A DNA stretch of 20,000 bases, taken from positions 108,322 to 128,321 of the forward strand of contig PS015088.1 of the NCBI GenBank assembly GCA_048213135.1, written 5' to 3'. Below are positions 9,238-19,472 of this stretch, one piece after another (the stretch's first letter is position 1; the number at the start of each line of letters is the position of its first letter). The notes beneath the pieces were generated by a model that was not told the DNA's origin, made no database searches, and was given only the letters and a program-made list of their open reading frames with translations. Made by a program: the position numbers and the translations under genes. This stretch comes from Reclinomonas americana ATCC 50394 (lineage: Eukaryota).

Positions 9238-10137
9238 ATGAGTCGCGCGTGTGCGTGAGTGGGGGCACAGACCGTGTGAGACCATATTTGAGTGTTAGAC
9301 ACGCCCACTCGCTTTTCACTCCGTATGTGTTCTCTGGCACACTCACTCGCTTTGCCTCAAATACAGAACTGAGGTCGATGCCGCACCTCCACCTCCACCA
9401 CCAGCAGCAGCAGTGGAGAAAGTCGCCACTGACTCCTCCTCATCATCGACGTCATCATCAGTTGGTGTGGTGCGCATCTCGCCCTCCACACTCGTGCTCC
9501 CGCAGCATTACTCGTCCGAGGAGGCGGCCGCCCTCAGCGTGGCCATTGCCAAGGGCGACATTGAAGAGGCGCGACTCATCCTCTACCGCAACCGCGCGCT
9601 CTTCAAAGCCGACTTACCCGACGCCGCCATGTCGAGTGAGGTGCGCCAGTTGGCCTCGCAGCGACGCCTGCTCAAGGCCATGATGCTGCGCGCGAATGGA
9701 GTCCCGGTCGAGTCGCTGCTGGCCTACCTCCACCAGGACGAGAAACAAGCGGACGGCGACGCTGCTGTGCCTGTGCCGCCGCACGTTGCCGGGACGACGC
9801 CGTTGCATTTGGCGGCGCAGCTCGACGAGACCGACATGATACGGTACACACAAAGAAAAAGAGCGTTTCCTTGTGTAAGTCGCCGCCGTTTTCTGACTTA
9901 GATGATGATGGCAGGTGGCTGGTGAATGAGCAACCGTGGTTGTTGGTGGTGCGAGACGCGCACGAGCGAACGCCGGCGGATGTGGCGCGCGCCATGGGAA
10001 ATCGAATGGCGGGCGAGGTGTTGCAGCAGTTGCTGATGGAGCACTTGTCTGCTGGTCAGTCTTCTTCTTCGTCGTCTGCAGAAGATCATCAAAAACACGG
10101 TGGTTTGTTGTTTGGTTTTGGGCGGCGGGCGTCGTGA
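9238..10137 (+). CDS. Ankyrin-repeat protein (exons about 9238-9254, 9367-9843, 9915-10137); may be the 5' part of the downstream kinase-HECT gene
   Basis: ALSVAIAKGDIEEARLIL, GTTPLHLAAQLDETDMIRWLV and DAHERTPADVARAMGN are ankyrin-type motifs. The intron at 9844-9914 (GTACAC...CAG) restores the frame. The first exon is tentative. Confidence 0.75.
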
Positions 10138-10821
10138 GTGGTTGCGGTGGTGGTGGGCGGGTTGATGTCGTCCTCCTGCTTCTCCTACTCCCACGTCACG
10201 TACGCACACACACGCGCGCGCTCGTGCCTGCCACTTGCCACCTTGTTGTGCCTGTTTCTCCACACTGCAGAGCACATTCTCCTCTTTTCCTCTTTCGAAT
10301 ATACCCTCATTCGTTTCCCCTCTTCTCTCTCTCATTCCCTTCTTTTGCCTCTCTCTCTCTCTCCCTCTCTGTGTGTGCGTGCATGGCATTCTCCTTTTTC
10401 TTTCTTTTTGTCGTCAGGCTCAATGGGGATGGTGCATCACTCCGCTGCCGCCGGTCGCAAAACTCCCTCTTTCCCCTTTGCTCATTTCCTCCCGTTACTC
10501 TTTTTTTTCCCTTCTGTTGCGCGTTCATGCACACCTCCCACCTTCACTTTATTCTCTTCTCTACTGATGCTGCCACCCGCCCTGCTATCACCGCCTTTCT
10601 CCGATACCATTGGCGACCACTATTCCTCTTTATTCGAACACTCCTATTCTGGTCGCATATGATTCACGTGTTCCCATCTCCTATCCTCCCGTCTCCTCCC
10701 TATCTTTTCCCCTCTCCCAGTACTCTCATTCACCTCGTTTCTCATTCTAATCGATGTTATTCACCCTCACCCCATTAAGATTCTTCGTGTTCGAATGTCC
10801 AACAATTTGTGCGCCACACAG

Positions 10822-13800
10822 GCTCGCAAGATGTCGTTCAATTGCAACGTGCATTGCAAGAACACGAGACGGCGCTCATCCAGGCGCGCATGATCCTGGA
10901 GAGCTCCGATGCCGCCGCACGCGCTGCTCGCGAGGAGCTGCAAGCGAATTTCATTCAGATACTGACCACGGAACGGGAGGCGCATGAGCGCAATGAGCTC
11001 GTGCATCGCCAGCGCGAGGAGCAGCTGCGGTCGCGACAGCAGGAGTTGGAGAAGCGGAACAGTGAGTCACGGAAGATGGCCGACGAGGCGCGCGCGGAGT
11101 TGCGGAGAGAGCGGGATGCGCGGTTGCGAGCCGAGGCCGAGCTGGCGCAATTACGGCAGCGCTACGATCCGTTGTCGGGCGGTTCCGGCAGTTGCGTTCT
11201 GTCGCCAAGAAAAGGGGATAGTATTATTATTGTGGTGGCCTGACACACTGCTCATTAGGCGACTCGTCGTCGGGGAATGGGGATCGCGAGTCGAGTCCAC
11301 CGCAGGGCAGCTCCAGTGCCGACGCCCAGAGCAGCCCGATTGCGGAGATGCACCGCAAGGTGGTGGAAATGCGGCGGCAGCTGCATTCGTTGTGCATTCC
11401 GTCGGTGTTGCGGGCTGTCAGTGTGGTCACGGAGGTGCGTTGTGGGAGCACAGGGAGGAAGAGAGGGAAAGAGGGACAGAGAGGATGAGGAGGGGGGCAC
11501 TGTCAGTGTAGTCACGGAGGATTGTCGTGGGAGCACAGGGAGGAAGAGAGGATTCTCGTCGCTTCTTGCTACCTTTTCTTCTTTACTCCCCCTTCCTTAN
11601 NNNNNNNNNNNNNNNNNNNTTCCTCATCCTTCCCTTTCCCCTTCTCCCCCTCACCTTCCCCCCCCTCCACCGACAGGCCCGCGAGGTCCAACGAAGTGCC
11701 AAATTCGCCGAGCAATTCACCACCAGCTCAGCGTACCGCGCCGCCGCCGGCTGCCGACAGCTGGTGGACACGGCGAGCGGATCGTTGAGTCGATTCACTC
11801 TTCCTCCCGCCCTCTCTCCCCTCTCCAGTCCCTCACCAGCACACAGATGGAATGACACGCTGGAGAGGGCCACCAACGACCGCCTCATGCGTACCGAACT
11901 GGCGGTGCGCACTCTGCGCTCCATCATTGAGAAAACNNNNNNNNNNNNNNNNNNNNNNNNNNNNNNNNNNNNNNNNNNNNNNNNNNNNNNNNNNNNNNNN
12001 NNNNNNNNNNNNNNNNNNNNNNNNNNNNNNNNNNNNNNNNNNNNNNNNNNNNNNNNNNNNNNNNNNNNNNNNNNNNNNNNNNNNNNNNNNNNNNNNNNNN
12101 NNNNNNNNNNNNNNNNNNNNNNACAGGCGCTGCTGTCGGAACACGAGTCGCTGGCCGGCTCTCTGCAGGCACAAGCCAGCACTCCCACCATCAATGGCTC
12201 CTCGTCGCCGGACTCGGTCGACGACGAGTCGAGCAACTCGAATTCATCGAGCGGTGCGTTTTCCCTCCTATCCTCCCAGTCTCCCATCAATCTGCCCTCA
12301 CACACATTCTCCCCTCTCTGCAGACTTGTCGTCCAACGCCGTCGAAGTCGTCAGCCCGGCGTTGATTGCTCAGTTGCACCGATGGATGGAGACTCACTGG
12401 GCGCGCATCGAAGCCGCCGTGCTGGCCACGGACGGTAGCGTCGTGTCACACGGACTCAATGGCAACATTCACCACGAGGCCGACGCACTGTCGCAGGCCC
12501 TCGATGCTGTGCCGGTCACCGCCGAACACGTCGGCCTCATTCGCTCCATTCTGGTGCGTGCGTGGGTGGAGAAAGGGGGCGAAGGGACTGTCATATTAAG
12601 AGTCTCACACGCGCGTGTGCAGGGCAAGAGCGCGCGTTCGTGCAGCTCCGTCCTGGCCCTGCTCGTCACCGAGTGCAATCGCCTCTCGCGTGGCCTGGAC
12701 GTGCAACGGCGCTCCATCCACGTGTGCGACGAGGTCACCGAGGCCTCGCACGAGGCGCGTGTGGCCGACCGCGCACTGCGACGAGCACTGGTGCGGGGAA
12801 GGAGATCTTTTTTTCTTCTTGCGCATATCGGCTCACCACCACATGCAGGTCGACTTGGAGGAGCAGCAAGACGACGGCGCCAGCCAACCGGTGCTTGCCA
12901 TGCTGGCCACCACTGTGGAGGAACGCCGCGAGGCACTCGGCAAGGCGCAGGAGAGATTAGCCCTGTGCAGTCACGCCCTGACGCTGCTGGAGAACGAGGA
13001 GTGGGTGCCGGAGCTCACGCTGCGGTCTCAGCGTGCTGTCGAGGCACTTGGTCAGCAGGTTTGTGAAAGGAAGGGAGAGGGGAAGGGAGGGAGAGAGAGA
13101 GAGAGAGAGGAGGAAGGGGGAACGATAGAGGTTGGTGGTGATCTTAACAAAAGGATCTGGAGGAGAATTTGGAAAAGGGGGAAACAGAGAACAGGATGAG
13201 GAAGAGAAGAGGCAGAGAGTATGAGTGTGCATTGCGCAGAAGTAGCCACGAGGCCGCGAGCAGGTCATGACTTCGGCCCTGCTTTTATGTACTTCTCTCC
13301 CATTCAATACTCGCCCCTCCGTTTTCTGTATATCGCCCTCCACTCCTGTCTCCCGTTTCTGTCTTCTTCCATCTCCCTTCTCTTCTTTCTGTCTCCATTT
13401 TCTACCGTTTCACCTTACTTCTCCCACCCACTCGTCTCCATTCGCGCTTCTCCCAAGTCGCACTTTTCATTCCCTTACCCACCCTTGACGCCCTTCACGT
13501 CCTTCCTTTTCGCACTCTTCCTCTCCATGCTTCTCGCTCTCCGCCCTCCCTCCTTCCCAATCCTTCCCCCTTGATTACTTCCCCCTTCATCTTCTCCCTT
13601 TTTTTCCCCTTTCCCCCTCTGCCCCTTCCGTCTTCCCCCTTCGTCTTCCCCCCTTCGGTCTTTCCCCTTCACCTTCCCCCTTCACCTTCCCCCTTCACCT
13701 TCCCCCTTCACCTTCCCCCTTCACCTTCCCCCTTCACCTTCCCCCTTCACCGTCCCCCTTCACCTTCCTCTTCCACCTTTCCCCTTCCCCCTTCCCCCCC

Positions 13801-16800
13801 TTTTCCTCACCCGCGCTCTTGTCCACCACCGCAGCACGTCATCCCCACCGTCCTACTGCGAAGCCCCTTCCTGATGCCGACGGTACGCGAGGACGCATTT
13901 GTCGACGTGGAGGAGGTGGCGGGTCGGAGAAACGTGTATCGCGCAAGGTGCGTCACCTCACTCGTCTCTTTTCTTGCTTCGCAGCGCTAACTCCTGTCAT
14001 GCAGGTTGCGAGAGGACGGCAGCCGGTGGATTCTCAAGCGATACACGCTCGGCGATGAGCAGGCACGCCACCGCTTCCTTCGCGAAGTCAGCATTCTTCG
14101 ACAGGTTTGTTTCATTGTTTCTTTTTGTCTGTCTCTTCTCTCCCTCTCACTCTCTCTTGCAGGTACAACACCCGAACGTGGTCCGCCTGCGCGGTTACTT
14201 TTTGGGCGACAAGAGCGCCGAGGATGTGATTGCCGTGTTCTCCTACCCGGGACTGCGCTCGTTGACAACATGGTGCCGCGAAAAACAGCGATCGGAGAGC
14301 GAGATCCGTGAGGTGTTCTTTGGATTGTTGCAGGTGCGGTTGTTCTTTCACATCGTTGCCTGTTGTGTGAGAGACCACAACTGAACACACATCGGGGGAC
14401 TTCGATGCAGGGATTGGTGGCTCTCCATCAGCACGACGTGGTGCATTGCGACTTGAACTTTGAGAATGTGATTATCAGTGCCGACGGGCAGCCGCGCATC
14501 GTCGACTATGACATTGCCGATGGTCCTCGGCCGCTGACGCGTCGCTTGGCAGTGGCAGGTGTGTTCTGCTACGCACGCTGCTTCCCCACTATTTGCACTC
14601 ACCTTTCCCTTCATCCGCACAGCCGAGGGCTCCGACGGCTTCCTCGCACCCGAGGTGATCGAGTGCATGGCCCGCCAGCGAAACGGCCTGCTGGCCTCCA
14701 CGGAGCCGTCCCGTGACCTGTTTGCTCTGGGTGTTATGCTTTTCCAGGCGATGGTCGGCATGGATCGAGCAGTGTCGGTGGTGCCCGCGGGTGCCAGCGG
14801 CGGCTGGGAGGTCCATCTGGATCAGGCCGCCATCACCTCGCCCACGCTTCTGTCACTTGTTCTGGCACTGGTCAGTGATATGCGCACATGTGTGCGTGTG
14901 TTTGTCGTGCGTTGTCTCACTGCCGTGGCACACAGGTTGAACCCGATCCAAAGAAACGCATTTCGGCGCTCGACGCACTGGCACACCCATTCTTCCGACT
15001 CCACTCATTACCGGCGTATGCCGTCGACGCGGCCACTTCACTGGCCGAGCAGCGCGTACAGTCGATTCGTGAGCAACTCGCACGCATGAGGACACACGCC
15101 GGACCGTACATTATGCCAGTTGCGGGCATGCAGAGATTTTTCTTTGTCGAAGAGGCTGAGTGACTCAACTGTGGGTGCGCGCACAGATTCAAGTTTCGCG
15201 CGAATCACTGGTCACCGACGGCGCCTCGTTCTTCCTGTCCATGGAGCCGTCGAACTGGATTGTGCCACTGCGTGTCTCGTTTTTGGGCGAGGAAGGAGTG
15301 GATGCGGGCGGCCTCACTGCGGAGTTTTTCGCTCAGGTTTGTGAACACACTGTTCTTCTCATCGCCTGTTGATCCTCTTTGTCATCCCAACACGCGATGC
15401 TTTCCTCGCATCTCCTTTCTCGTTACCCTTCTCGCTCCTTTCCAACTGTTGCTTTTCTTGATCCTCTCTGTCATCCCAACACGCGATGCATTCCCCGCAT
15501 CCCCTTCCCGTTACCCTTCTCACCCCTCTCCAACTCTTGCTATCCTTTTGCCGTCCCAACACGCGATCCTTTCCTCACATCTCCTCTCTCGTTACCCTTC
15601 TCGCTCCTTTCCAACTGTTGCTTTTCTTGATCCTCTCTGTCGTCCGACTCTTTCCTCCCATCTCCTTCCCGTTACCCTTCTCGCTCTTCCCCAGCTCTTG
15701 CCTTTCTTGATCCTTTTTGTCGTCCCAACACGCAGTTCATTCGTCGCATCTCTTTCCCTTGTTGCTTTCTTGATCCTCTCCGTCGTCCCAACACACGATC
15801 CTTCCACATCCCCTTTGCCCTTCTCACTCTTCCCCAGCTCTTCCCTTTCTTGATCCTTTTTGTCGTCCCAACACACGATCGTTTCCTCGCATCTCTTTCC
15901 CTTGTTGCTTTCTTGATCCTATCTGTCGCCCCAACACGCGATCCTTTCCTCACATCCCTTTCCCTTTACCCTTCTCGCTCCTCTTCGGCTGTTGCTTCTC
16001 GTGATCCTTTCCTCGCGTCTCTTTCCCTTCACCCTTCTCACCCCCTCCGCTCCTCTTGCAGTTCTTTGAGCAACTGTGCACCAAGTCGAACGCATTCGTG
16101 CGGGAGGACGAGCACGACGCGCAGTACTACCACGTGGCGCCGCTGCACGTCATGTCGCGCGAACACCGAGAGCAAGCGGAGCTGACGTTGCTGGCGTTTG
16201 GTCGCGCCCTGGCCAAGTGTCTGTCGGAGGCGCACGCGGCGCTGCCGGCTCCCCTGTACTCGGACGTGATCCTGGAGCTGCTCGGCTCGACTCCACGCGC
16301 GCGCATGTTTTGCGATCCAAATGATGTGACGGCCGACGCTGCCGAGGCGCTGCTGCGCGCACTCGAAGTGATTGTGCCGTCGGTGGCCAGGAGCTTGCGC
16401 TTCACCCTGGTGCAGTTCGAGGCCTCCATGTTGTTCTTTGACGATGTTGTACCCGAGTTTTTGCCAAGCACTGTCAGTTGCGTGCGGATAGGGAGAATGG
16501 GATTGGCATGGCGAGTGGCTCACGAGATTGCTTTGCAACACAGATGCACGTGATGGCGTCACGGAGGAGAATCGCTTGTCGTACGTTTGTGCCCGCGCTC
16601 GCACGGTGTTGCTGGGTCAGGGCCGGTTGGACGCCATCTCAATAATTAAGCGCGGAGTCCGGGATTGTCTGGCACCCGCGTTGGGCGATCAGGTGTGTGT
16701 GCGCGCGCGTCATGGAATCGTTAGTCGTGGCACTCATTTCTTCTCGAATATGCTGCAGCTGCTCAACTCCATGGGTGCCTTTGAATGGCTGCGCGCACTG

Positions 16801-17214
16801 CCGGCAACGCAGGAGTCTGTCGGTGCGTCCTTCTCCTTCATCGTCTCCCCTGTCCCTCTCACCACCGCATCGCTCACCGCTCGCACAGATGCCGAGGCCC
16901 TCATCGACCTGCTGCGCTTTGAGCACTTCCCTGACGCAAGCGAGGCACCCCATGTGCTGGCCCAGGCGCTGCGCGAATTCACACAAGATGAGTTGCGCCA
17001 GTTCCTCAAGTTTGTCACCAATCTGCCGGGGCTGCCGTTCGGACATCCGCGACCGGTGTTGGTGGTGGCCTCGGCGGCTGGTGTCGAAGAGCTCCCGACG
17101 GCGCACACCTGTGTGCCGCAGTTGGATCTCAGCTGGCATCACTCGTCGGCCGAGGTGCTCGGTCGTGTGCTGCGGACGGCGATTGCGCAGTGTGTTGGCT
17201 TTGGATTCGCGTAG
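10822..17214 (+). CDS. Coiled-coil + atypical protein kinase + C-terminal HECT E3 ubiquitin ligase fusion protein (multi-exon; 5' exon unresolved; spans two N gaps)
   Basis: Coiled-coil exons lie at 10822-13058. Kinase exons (13835-15118) show WILKRY, FLREVSIL, HPNVVRL, HCDLNFENV, IVDYDIA, GFLAPE, DLFALGVML and DPKKRISALDALAHPFF. HECT exons (15187-17214) show VSRESL, LRVSFLGEEGVDAGGLTAEFF, FGRALAKCL, FLKFVT, LPTAHTC (catalytic Cys) and terminal GFGFA*. The kinase and HECT parts join in frame across intron 15119-15186. Confidence 0.88.
13059..13834. repeat. Long intron with purine then pyrimidine low complexity and a 13-bp CCTTCACCTTCCC minisatellite (about 13665-13770)
   Basis: Tandem CCTTCACCTTCCC units are directly visible. 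GTTTGT donor and CAG acceptor. Confidence 0.85.
15365..16040. repeat. Intronic compound minisatellite, about 8-9 units of 60-90 bp
   Basis: TTGATCCTCT(C/T)TGTC(A/G)TCCCAACAC(G/A)CGAT recurs, followed by variable CGTTACCCTTCTCGCTC / GTTGCTTTCTT modules, inside intron 15337-16061. Confidence 0.9.
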
Positions 17215-17265: not shown

Positions 17266-19472
17266 TCATCCGGGACACCGACTGCGATACTCTTCCACCA
17301 GCTCGGCGTTGAGCGAGGGTGTGACCTTTCGCCGTGCGCTGTCAAAGTCCGCCGTGCACTGCGCGTTGTCAACAGTGAGCATGAGTTGGAAGGGAGGTCA
17401 TGGGCATTGTGTCGCACCACCACTGCCGAATTCATATCTCTCCGGAGCGCAGACATGGCCGCCTCTGTGCACAGCGCTTTGAGCTCGGCTCCCGTCATGA
17501 ATTCCGTCTGCACACAACATGTCTCAGTGCACCGAGGAGAGTGATGGCGAAAAAAACGAGCGTCACACCTGCTCGGCGATCCTGGTGAGGTTCAGCCTGT
17601 CGTCGAGCGGCATGCCACGCGTGTGCACTCTCAAGATGGCGACACGAGCCTCCAGATCGGGTGGTGGCACAAACAGCAGGCGATCGAAGCGCCCGGGGCG
17701 CAACAGTGCGGCGTCCACCATCTCGGGTCGATTGGTCGCCGCCATCACCAGCACATCTCGCCGCAGCGCACCGACGCCGTCCATTTCGTTCAACAGCGCC
17801 GTGAGAATGCGGTCTCGTACGGCATCTGAGCCCCCACTTTCACCACCATCTCCACGCTTGCCGACCAGTGCATCGATTTCGTCGAGGAAAATGACGGACG
17901 GTGCGGCCAGGGCGGCCTTCTTGAACAGCTCGCGAATGTACCGCTCGGCGTCGCCGACATATGGCGAGTACACGGTGGCACCACTGGTGTGGAGAAAGGT
18001 GAGCGACGCAGAGGCCGCGACAGCCCGCGCCAAACTGGTCTTTGCGCAACCCGGCGGTCCGTGCAGGAGAATGCCGCGCGGTGGCGACAGACCCATGCGC
18101 TCAAACGTGTGCCGGTACCGCAGCGGCCACTGGATCGCCTGCGCCAGTGCCAGTTTCACGTCCTCCAGGCCACCAATGTCGTCAAACGACGCCACCGGTG
18201 CCGACACGCCGACTTCGGCGGCCTCTCGATGCAGCGATGGACGCACCACCGACCGTGCATGCTCAAAGTGCGACCGCCCGACGCGCACATTGGCGGCGGC
18301 GGCAGCGACAGCCTCTGCGTCGGCGGCCAGAAACGCGACGCGACACAACTCGGCCAGATCCGCCCCCACGAATCCAGCGCACGACTCGGCAATCGTCACT
18401 GAAGGAAAACAATAGTGAGAGGAGACAAGGACGATGATGGAAAAGCAAGCAATCCATGCAAACCAAGATCAACATCGTCTGCCAGTCGCATGCGGGAGGT
18501 GCGCGCACGCAGGATGGCCACCTTGCCGTCGAGTGACGGTGGCGGTATCTCGATCTCGCGATCAAAACGACCGGGCCTGCGCAGAGCGGGATCCAACCGT
18601 GATGCGGCATTGGTGGCCGCCAGCACCACTACTCCCGATGATTGTTCGCCGGGCGCGTGATCGAGGTCGTCCATCAGCGTCTGCAATTGCGCGACGATGC
18701 GTGCGCCGTAATGACTGCCGACAGAGTCGCGCCGCTGACACAACGCGTCGATCTCATCCATGAAAATCACCACGGGCCGATTGCGCGATGCTATTTCGCG
18801 TGCTTCTGCAAACGCCTCACGCAACCGGCGCTCCGTCTCACCCATGGTGTCGTCGGTGACCGACGCACAGTCGATGCACACCACATGCGCGCCGCACTCG
18901 CGCGCCACAGCACGCGCAGCACTGGTCTTGCCGACGCCTGGAGGCCCCGTGAGCAGAGCACCACGCGGTGGACGCACACCCAGTCGAGTGAACACTTCGG
19001 GGACGCGGTGCGGCAGCACCACCAGTTCGCGCAGGGAGCGGAGGACGGAGTCGAGCCCTCCAAGCAACTCTCCCTCCTCTTCCTCCTCCTCCTCTTCGTC
19101 CTTGTCATCCTCCGACAGAGGGGAAGGAGACCTCCCTGGTGACGACTGCTGCTGTAACCGCAGCCGTGTGTTGGCGGTGACGAAAAAGAAGCGATCGGGC
19201 GGAGCACTGGCCTCGGCTGCCACCGCCGTCGAGAAGCGCACATTTGCCACATGCAGTGGAAGCACGTCGGTCGCTGCCTTATCGTCATCACCGACCGGCA
19301 TCAACACTGTGACACCGACCTCCAACAGCGGAAAGCGACGCAGGAATGCTTGCACGCGGGCGGCGTCGACGGGTGATCGAGAAGAAGATGACGACGACGA
19401 AGGGCAGTGCACTGTGACGGAGCTGGCGCGGCGAGGGATGGGGCGGCCAGATGTGAGCACGTCAATGGTGGC
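17266..19472 (-). CDS. AFG2B: CDC48-family double-AAA+ ATPase, SPATA5L1/AFG2B-like (ribosome biogenesis); 5' end unresolved
   Basis: Exons 19472-18464, 18398-17569, 17507-17418 and 17358-17266. D1: GPPGVGKT, IFMDEID, DPALRRPGRFDRE. D2: GPPGCAKT, YSPYVGDAE, IFLDEID, ALLRPGRFD. The GCAKT and SPYVGD variants fit the recalled SPATA5L1/CDC48B subfamily. Confidence 0.85.

Follow-up and report, generated by a model that had tools for sequence, protein, structure and literature searches.

A divergent gene of Reclinomonas americana encoding a predicted TKUL-like kinase-HECT E3 ligase

The window analysed here is a stretch of 20,000 nucleotides from Reclinomonas americana ATCC 50394 (GenBank assembly GCA_048213135.1, contig PS015088.1, positions 108,322 to 128,321 of the forward strand), and all coordinates are counted from its first letter. 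On its + strand lies a gene in which a protein kinase domain and a HECT domain are joined in one reading frame. The gene spans 12124-17214 and probably extends beyond two assembly gaps (runs of N at 11600-11619 and 11937-12122), both of which probably interrupt its upstream part. As read from the sequence, the fusion is real at the gene level, and the product is likely to be a single polypeptide composed of a coiled-coil-like N-terminal region, an atypical kinase domain, a linker, and a complete HECT domain, resembling the Leishmania E3 ligase TKUL. The gene model was built from GT..AG sites and reading frames, with the splicing of every intron being predicted. Its parts are as follows.

12124-12253 (+): upstream exon A, an open frame joining exon B in phase; truncated on its 5' side by the assembly gap at 11937-12122
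12324-12553 (+): upstream exon B, bounded by GT-AG and continuing the phase of exon A into exon C
12623-12790 (+): upstream exon C, where homology to the pre-kinase region of the relatives starts
12849-13058 (+): upstream exon D, a coiled-coil-like segment immediately before the kinase domain
13059-13834 (+): proposed long intron, 776 nucleotides, CT-rich, acceptor CAG/, phase 0/0
13835-13947 (+): kinase exon 1, degenerate glycine loop; alternative ATG at 13874, so that 13874-13947 belongs to the 675-residue model
14005-14104 (+): kinase exon 2, beta3 Lys (ILK, AAG at 14036-14038) and alphaC Glu
14163-14333 (+): kinase exon 3, hinge and alphaD-alphaE region
14411-14558 (+): kinase exon 4, HCDLNFEN loop with its Asn (AAC) at 14456-14458 and DYD at 14504-14512; Pfam Pkinase, E 5.3e-7
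14623-14870 (+): kinase exon 5, APE motif and subdomains IX-X; Pfam Pkinase, E 0.037
14936-15118 (+): exon 6, kinase subdomain XI (ALAHPFF) and conserved helical linker, from the homologue alignment and tblastn
15119-15186 (+): intron 6, 68 nucleotides, GT..AG, phase 0/0, at the kinase/HECT junction
15187-15336 (+): exon 7, start of the HECT N-lobe, from tblastn matches of homologues
15337-16061 (+): intron 7, 725 nucleotides, CT-rich, with tandem repeats
16062-16476 (+): exon 8, HECT N-lobe; in comparison with the family, about 17 residues are inserted here
16544-16692 (+): exon 9, small subdomain of the HECT N-lobe
16759-16822 (+): exon 10, HECT hinge region
16889-17214 (+): exon 11, HECT C-lobe with Cys (TGT) at 17110-17112, Phe at position -4, and TAG at 17212-17214

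The core model (13874-17214) consists of 11 exons and ten introns, all with GT..AG ends, nine of the introns measuring 57-77 nucleotides and one 725 nucleotides. Its spliced coding sequence of 2028 nucleotides encodes 675 residues without an internal stop, and the exon 8 donor at 16476/16477 keeps the frame open. CT-rich tandem repeats make up both long introns of the gene, whereas every other intron is 57-77 nucleotides long. The 776-nucleotide intron holds 16.6 copies of the 13-nucleotide unit CTTCCCCCTTCAC at 13578-13798, and the repeats of intron 7 (15369-15986) have units of 63-169 nucleotides in about 2-3 copies each. An unrecognised intron behind the N-lobe insertion was considered and rejected: by eye, no GT..AG pair with a pyrimidine tract was found there, and at 51-54 nucleotides it would be shorter than any intron in the gene.

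The Pfam search, run on each of the 11 exon translations separately, identified the HECT domain in exon 11 (E 3.2e-18, 66.9 bits) and the Pkinase domain in exon 4 (29.7 bits, slightly below the cut-off of 31.7) and exon 5. The other eight exons gave no Pfam match at E <= 1; for exon 8 alone, a word-based search against longer proteins was also empty, which is weak evidence. The HECT domain is complete, with model residues of about 300-675 covering the full HECT region of the homologues, N-lobe and C-lobe. The catalytic Cys lies in the motif AHTC, and the C-terminus reads GFGFA, placing a Phe at position -4. The first-pass annotation had named the ALAHPFF motif, a linker of about 40 residues, the HTC cysteine, and the terminal Phe, all of which are present in the sequence.

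The frame 16546-17211, which reads through two in-frame introns, served as the query for a homologue search of 1.84 billion representative proteins. This search returned 133 matches at E <= 1e-3, the best with an E value of 8.8e-15 and 44% identity; since the best match is no closer than this, the protein of the window and any close relatives are absent from the searched library. The relatives are cited below by P number. The 675-residue model aligns with 20 of the 133 relatives in one high-scoring segment pair (HSP) that reaches from the N-lobe of the kinase to the C-terminus of the HECT domain. The best of these alignments is with P0094 (E 2.7e-60), and P0004 (2.7e-55), P0046 (1.3e-54), and P0114 (2.8e-40) align in the same way. 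The open spliced coding sequence, the Pfam matches on single exons, and this collinearity agree with the first-pass claim that kinase and HECT share one frame.

At the junction itself, the tblastn matches of P0003 place its residues 183-244 on 14945-15124 and then 241-290 on 15187-15336, and those of P0114 place residues 986-1048 and 1045-1146 on exon 6 and exon 7. The matches of 20 homologues start at 15178-15187, for example that of P0017 (residues 1189-1238). Because these segments abut across 15118/15187, the relatives are free of a gap exactly at the proposed intron 6. In a 13-row alignment with 12 homologues, the roughly 40 residues that link kinase subdomain XI to the HECT N-lobe are conserved and constant in length. 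The earlier description of a kinase fused directly to a ligase therefore needs qualification: kinase and HECT do lie in one polypeptide, but the family has a conserved helical segment as the linker between them, and a further N-terminal region lies upstream of the kinase domain.

The kinase domain does not mark the beginning of the gene. The upstream exons A-D are bounded by short GT-AG introns and are in frame with 13835, giving an extended model of 934 residues. Position 13835, with which the feature of the first-pass annotation begins, is an internal exon boundary after an acceptor site, and sequence before it, from exon C on, aligns with homologues. Six homologues align with the extended model as one HSP beginning 48-91 residues ahead of the 13058/13835 junction. 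P0094 aligns with its residues 482-1226 on 164-925 of the model (E 9.4e-63, 762 model residues) and P0004 with residues 499-1233 on 156-907 (E 6e-62); P0017, P0035, P0018, and P0132 likewise align across the junction. The alignments of P0004 and P0094 open at model residues 156-164, inside exon C. Exon D matches residues 499-580 of P0004 (E 2e-4 with blastp; 5.8e-5 with phmmer), collinear with the kinase match. For exon B, no Pfam family was found, and exon A itself rests on frame and phase, without support from homology.

Two other gene structures have to be weighed against a single gene that begins upstream of 13835. In one of them, a kinase-only protein would end inside intron 6 and the HECT domain would be expressed separately. 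Retention of this intron would indeed close the frame, with an in-frame TGA at 15161-15163, just as the first-pass annotation had pointed out together with the intron itself. However, intron 6 has GT..AG ends, phase 0/0, and a size like eight others of the gene, and the homologues run unbroken across the junction with a conserved linker. A separate HECT frame would also lack an ATG before its first in-frame Met, which already lies inside the HECT N-lobe, and a stop codon closes the reading frame on the 5' side of 15187. We consider this arrangement highly improbable. In the other structure, translation would start at ATG 13874 and yield the 675-residue protein, and the coiled-coil exons would form a separate gene ending at 13197-13199. 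The ATG at 13874 sits 17 residues ahead of the glycine-loop position, the upstream frame does stop at 13197-13199 if the donor at 13059 is not used, and agreement in phase would by itself occur about once in three cases by chance. Against this short form stand the six homologues, which run from before the junction directly into the kinase domain, and a shuffle control, in which the upstream part scores 38.5 bits against the P0004 N-terminus, compared with 18.8 +/- 2.6 for shuffled sequences, none of 200 reaching the real score. Furthermore, the donor of the 776-nucleotide intron (CAG/GTTTGTG) is identical to that of intron 7, and in all full-length fused homologues that were scanned, the kinase domain is preceded by 120 residues or more. 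The short form thus seems quite unlikely, and the single gene with the upstream exons is the structure used in the following.

Further upstream, the Pfam search of 46 + strand frames found no TPR, Kelch, or RCC1 module, with the assembly gaps hiding some of the sequence. On the same strand, an ankyrin-repeat match at 9299-9898 stays below threshold (E 0.0025, 18.5 bits against a cut-off of 21.1), and a coiled-coil-like frame is found at 10779-11240. Both frames may be part of the kinase-HECT gene. Ankyrin repeats were not found in any of the eight closest homologues scanned, and neither the coiled-coil frame nor the ankyrin-like frames gave a significant match to the N-termini of homologues.

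The combination of kinase and HECT domains is shared by many of the relatives. The Pfam architecture scan took 69 of the 133, the remaining 64 being mostly fragments under about 350 residues, and found Pkinase together with HECT in 23. Among ranks 1-50, of which 34 were scanned, Pkinase lies N-terminal to HECT in 17 (15 above the curated cut-off, P0005 and P0047 below it), and these make up 17 of the 20 scanned relatives of at least 500 residues in this range, an enrichment of fused proteins at the top of the ranking. Both domains were found in 6 of the 35 scanned relatives of ranks 59-132. Two relatives, P0008 and P0041, appear as HECT-only proteins by Pfam, yet each aligns as a single HSP into the kinase region (model residues 117-672 and 23-648), suggesting that they probably hold truncated or degenerate kinase domains.

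The named relatives include proteins of Phytomonas (P0006), Papus ankaliazontas (P0003), Salpingoeca macrocollata (P0047), Naegleria lovaniensis (P0094, XP_044545551.1), Willaertia magna (P0018, KAL9654662.1), and Tieghemostelium lacteum (P0017, KYQ89671.1). P0114 falls into one 90% cluster with Leishmania HECT12, the "MAP kinase kinase-like protein" LmjF.35.4000. The 23 fused relatives carry TPR (6), Kelch (2), RCC1 (1), or no N-terminal module recognised by Pfam (14), at thresholds of E <= 1e-3 for ranks 1-50 and E <= 1e-5 for ranks 59-132. Since only 6 of 23 have it, TPR does not define the wider kinase-HECT family but marks its kinetoplastid branch. One member of the 90% cluster of Leishmania HECT12 is P0143, a 129-residue protein labelled "TmrC" from Dehalobacter, and the PDB entry 8ye5, also "TmrC", matches the TPR region of P0114 (3.5e-79). 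This bacterial label on a near-identical Leishmania TPR segment could reflect mislabelling, contamination, or transfer.

A HECT tree calculated with a quick method (LG+G4) places the window protein, on a long branch and without starred support, within a 33-row cluster that contains all 18 fused rows. Kinase-bearing rows are clustered in the tree more than in 499-500 of 500 shuffles.

Kinase-HECT proteins are also known from the literature. Fokkens et al. (Mol Cell 85:3711, 2025) are said to have described TKUL as a ligase under the control of its kinase domain. The structure PDB 9gmp, a kinase domain, matches the kinase domain of P0114 (3.2e-182). Parsons et al. 2005 (PMC1266030) describe LmjF35.4000 as a unique kinase that combines three TPR motifs with a HECT domain, and Grau-Bove et al. 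2013 (PMC3673628) mention kinase domains in the "GL-Bikonta" HECTs of Naegleria gruberi and Ectocarpus. Burge et al. 2020 (PMC7647121) report that the hect12 null mutant is less fit. A 2026 preprint (bioRxiv 10.64898/2026.05.08.723729) uses the name TKUL and states that in amastigotes both activities are important and that the ligase activity requires autophosphorylation, and according to a 2026 review (PMC13196369), TKUL is inhibited allosterically by a kinase inhibitor. The first-pass annotation knew of no characterised fusion of this kind; in view of the publications from 2005 and 2013 and the 23 fused relatives, the architecture is not novel. The annotation had itself named a widespread and previously described architecture as a ground for refutation, and by that standard its claim of novelty fails. 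The window gene is a divergent addition to the known protist kinase-HECT family and not a new enzyme type.

The closest characterised system is TKUL/HECT12 (LmxM.34.4000; L. major LmjF.35.4000), which has the same module of kinase, conserved linker, and HECT domain as the window protein. Residues 20-669 of the window model align with 742-1418 of P0114 from the TKUL cluster in one HSP (E 8.9e-41, 25% identity). Common to both are the HECT Cys, the beta3 Lys, the alphaC Glu, the catalytic Asp and Asn, the APE motif, and the degenerate glycine loop. They differ in the N-terminal TPR repeats, which are present in TKUL and for which no counterpart was found in the window, and in the active site, where TKUL has HGDLKPSN and DFG and the window HCDLNFEN and DYD. 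The window protein furthermore has the N-lobe insertion of about 17 residues, and its gene has ten or more introns, whereas trypanosomatid genes are nearly intron-free.

The best full-length matches are the heterolobosean kinase-HECTs (P0094 and P0018; "GL-Bikonta" HECTs), which share with the window protein an N-terminal region without recognised domains, a coiled-coil-like segment before the kinase, the HCD loop, and a DFD-type motif. Unlike the window protein, they retain the catalytic-loop Lys, and the identity is only about 26%. The dictyostelid P0017 is collinear over kinase, linker, and HECT (5.2e-52) but has an N-terminal RCC1 propeller, a module that was not found upstream in the window. 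The window C-lobe resembles canonical HECT structures, namely, E6AP (PDB ID 7qpb, 2.4e-6) and AREL1 (PDB ID 6jx5, 6.3e-6). Canonical HECT E3s such as E6AP/UBE3A, HUWE1, and AREL1 have the catalytic Cys and the Phe at -4 in common with the window protein but lack a kinase domain; the window N-lobe has diverged too far to be recognised by Pfam on single exons.

The kinase active site keeps the beta3 Lys (ILK), the alphaC Glu (FLREV), the catalytic Asp and Asn (HCD..N), the metal-binding Asp, and the APE motif. In the catalytic loop HCDLNFEN, an Asn occupies a position at which 16 of the 17 homologues whose loop can be recognised have Lys, and DYD stands at the DFG position. GxGxxG is absent from the window protein and from all 11 aligned homologues that cover the glycine loop. 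Because the catalytic-loop Asn and DYD replace Lys and DFG, the phosphotransfer activity of the predicted kinase may be weak or lost. The metagenome relative P0097 shows the same change from Lys to Asn in its loop HRDINWNN; it also shares with the window protein the LPT.HTC motif and the GFGF ending.

These features raise the question of whether the domain is a pseudokinase, with a real fusion whose kinase part would have lost phosphotransfer and would serve the HECT ligase as a nucleotide-binding module, a structural regulator, or a substrate-docking module. The Asn in the catalytic loop, DYD in place of DFG or DFD, and the glycine loop without GxGxxG point in this direction, and the loop of P0097 suggests that the Asn state is tolerated. 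On the other hand, all of the conserved residues listed above are retained, the degenerate glycine loop is a trait of the whole family, including the TKUL cluster reported to autophosphorylate, and DFD is frequent in the heterolobosean and dictyostelid branch. To us, a pseudokinase appears somewhat unlikely on this balance. A narrower version, in which the protein would be a natural phospho-dead TKUL switch without autophosphorylation and with the HECT domain still gated by nucleotide binding or conformation alone, we regard as unlikely. If it were true, the protein would be a pseudokinase-regulated E3 ligase and a point of comparison for an allosteric switch without phosphate transfer.

Returning to the reading as a TKUL-like ligase, the Cys encoded at 17110-17112 would take ubiquitin from an E2 enzyme as a thioester and pass it to substrate lysines, as expected from HECT biochemistry. 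By homology to TKUL, the kinase domain, held to the HECT domain by the conserved linker, would regulate the ligase in cis as a switch; in TKUL, this switch is reported to work via autophosphorylation and kinase-domain conformation. The first-pass suggestion that one polypeptide couples phosphorylation or nucleotide sensing to ubiquitination is plausible by analogy, in agreement with the reports on TKUL.

Several observations weigh against this reading. The splicing of every intron is a model read from the sequence, and over the module the homologues are only 22-28% identical to the window protein. No starred clade of the HECT tree includes this protein, and its long branch is joined to P0097, with a warning for long branches. 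Unlike TKUL, the gene has no upstream TPR, Kelch, or RCC1 module in the Pfam scans. The change from Lys to Asn, the DYD motif, and the degenerate glycine loop speak against simply transferring the autophosphorylation mechanism, and the TKUL mechanism itself is taken from two secondary accounts of one distant relative.

At its 3' end, the kinase-HECT gene is bounded, because a convergent gene for a CDC48/AFG2-like AAA ATPase (17566-18468, - strand; Pfam AAA, E 2.4e-38) lies after the stop codon. The highest identity of this neighbour among the named matches is 59%, to a jakobid protein labelled Seculamonas ecuadoriensis; its other matches are archaeal and fungal CDC48-like proteins.

The gene adds to the family a very divergent and intron-rich member, which shares about 25% identity with any relative from the searched libraries, and the lineage from which it comes is poorly sampled in these libraries. 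It opens no new category, as the architecture is already in the literature and one member is known from both biochemical and structural work. Its contribution is rather that the coiled-coil segment before the kinase and the linker are conserved beyond the kinetoplastids, and that the altered catalytic loop would provide a natural test of whether the switch from kinase to ligase needs phosphotransfer.

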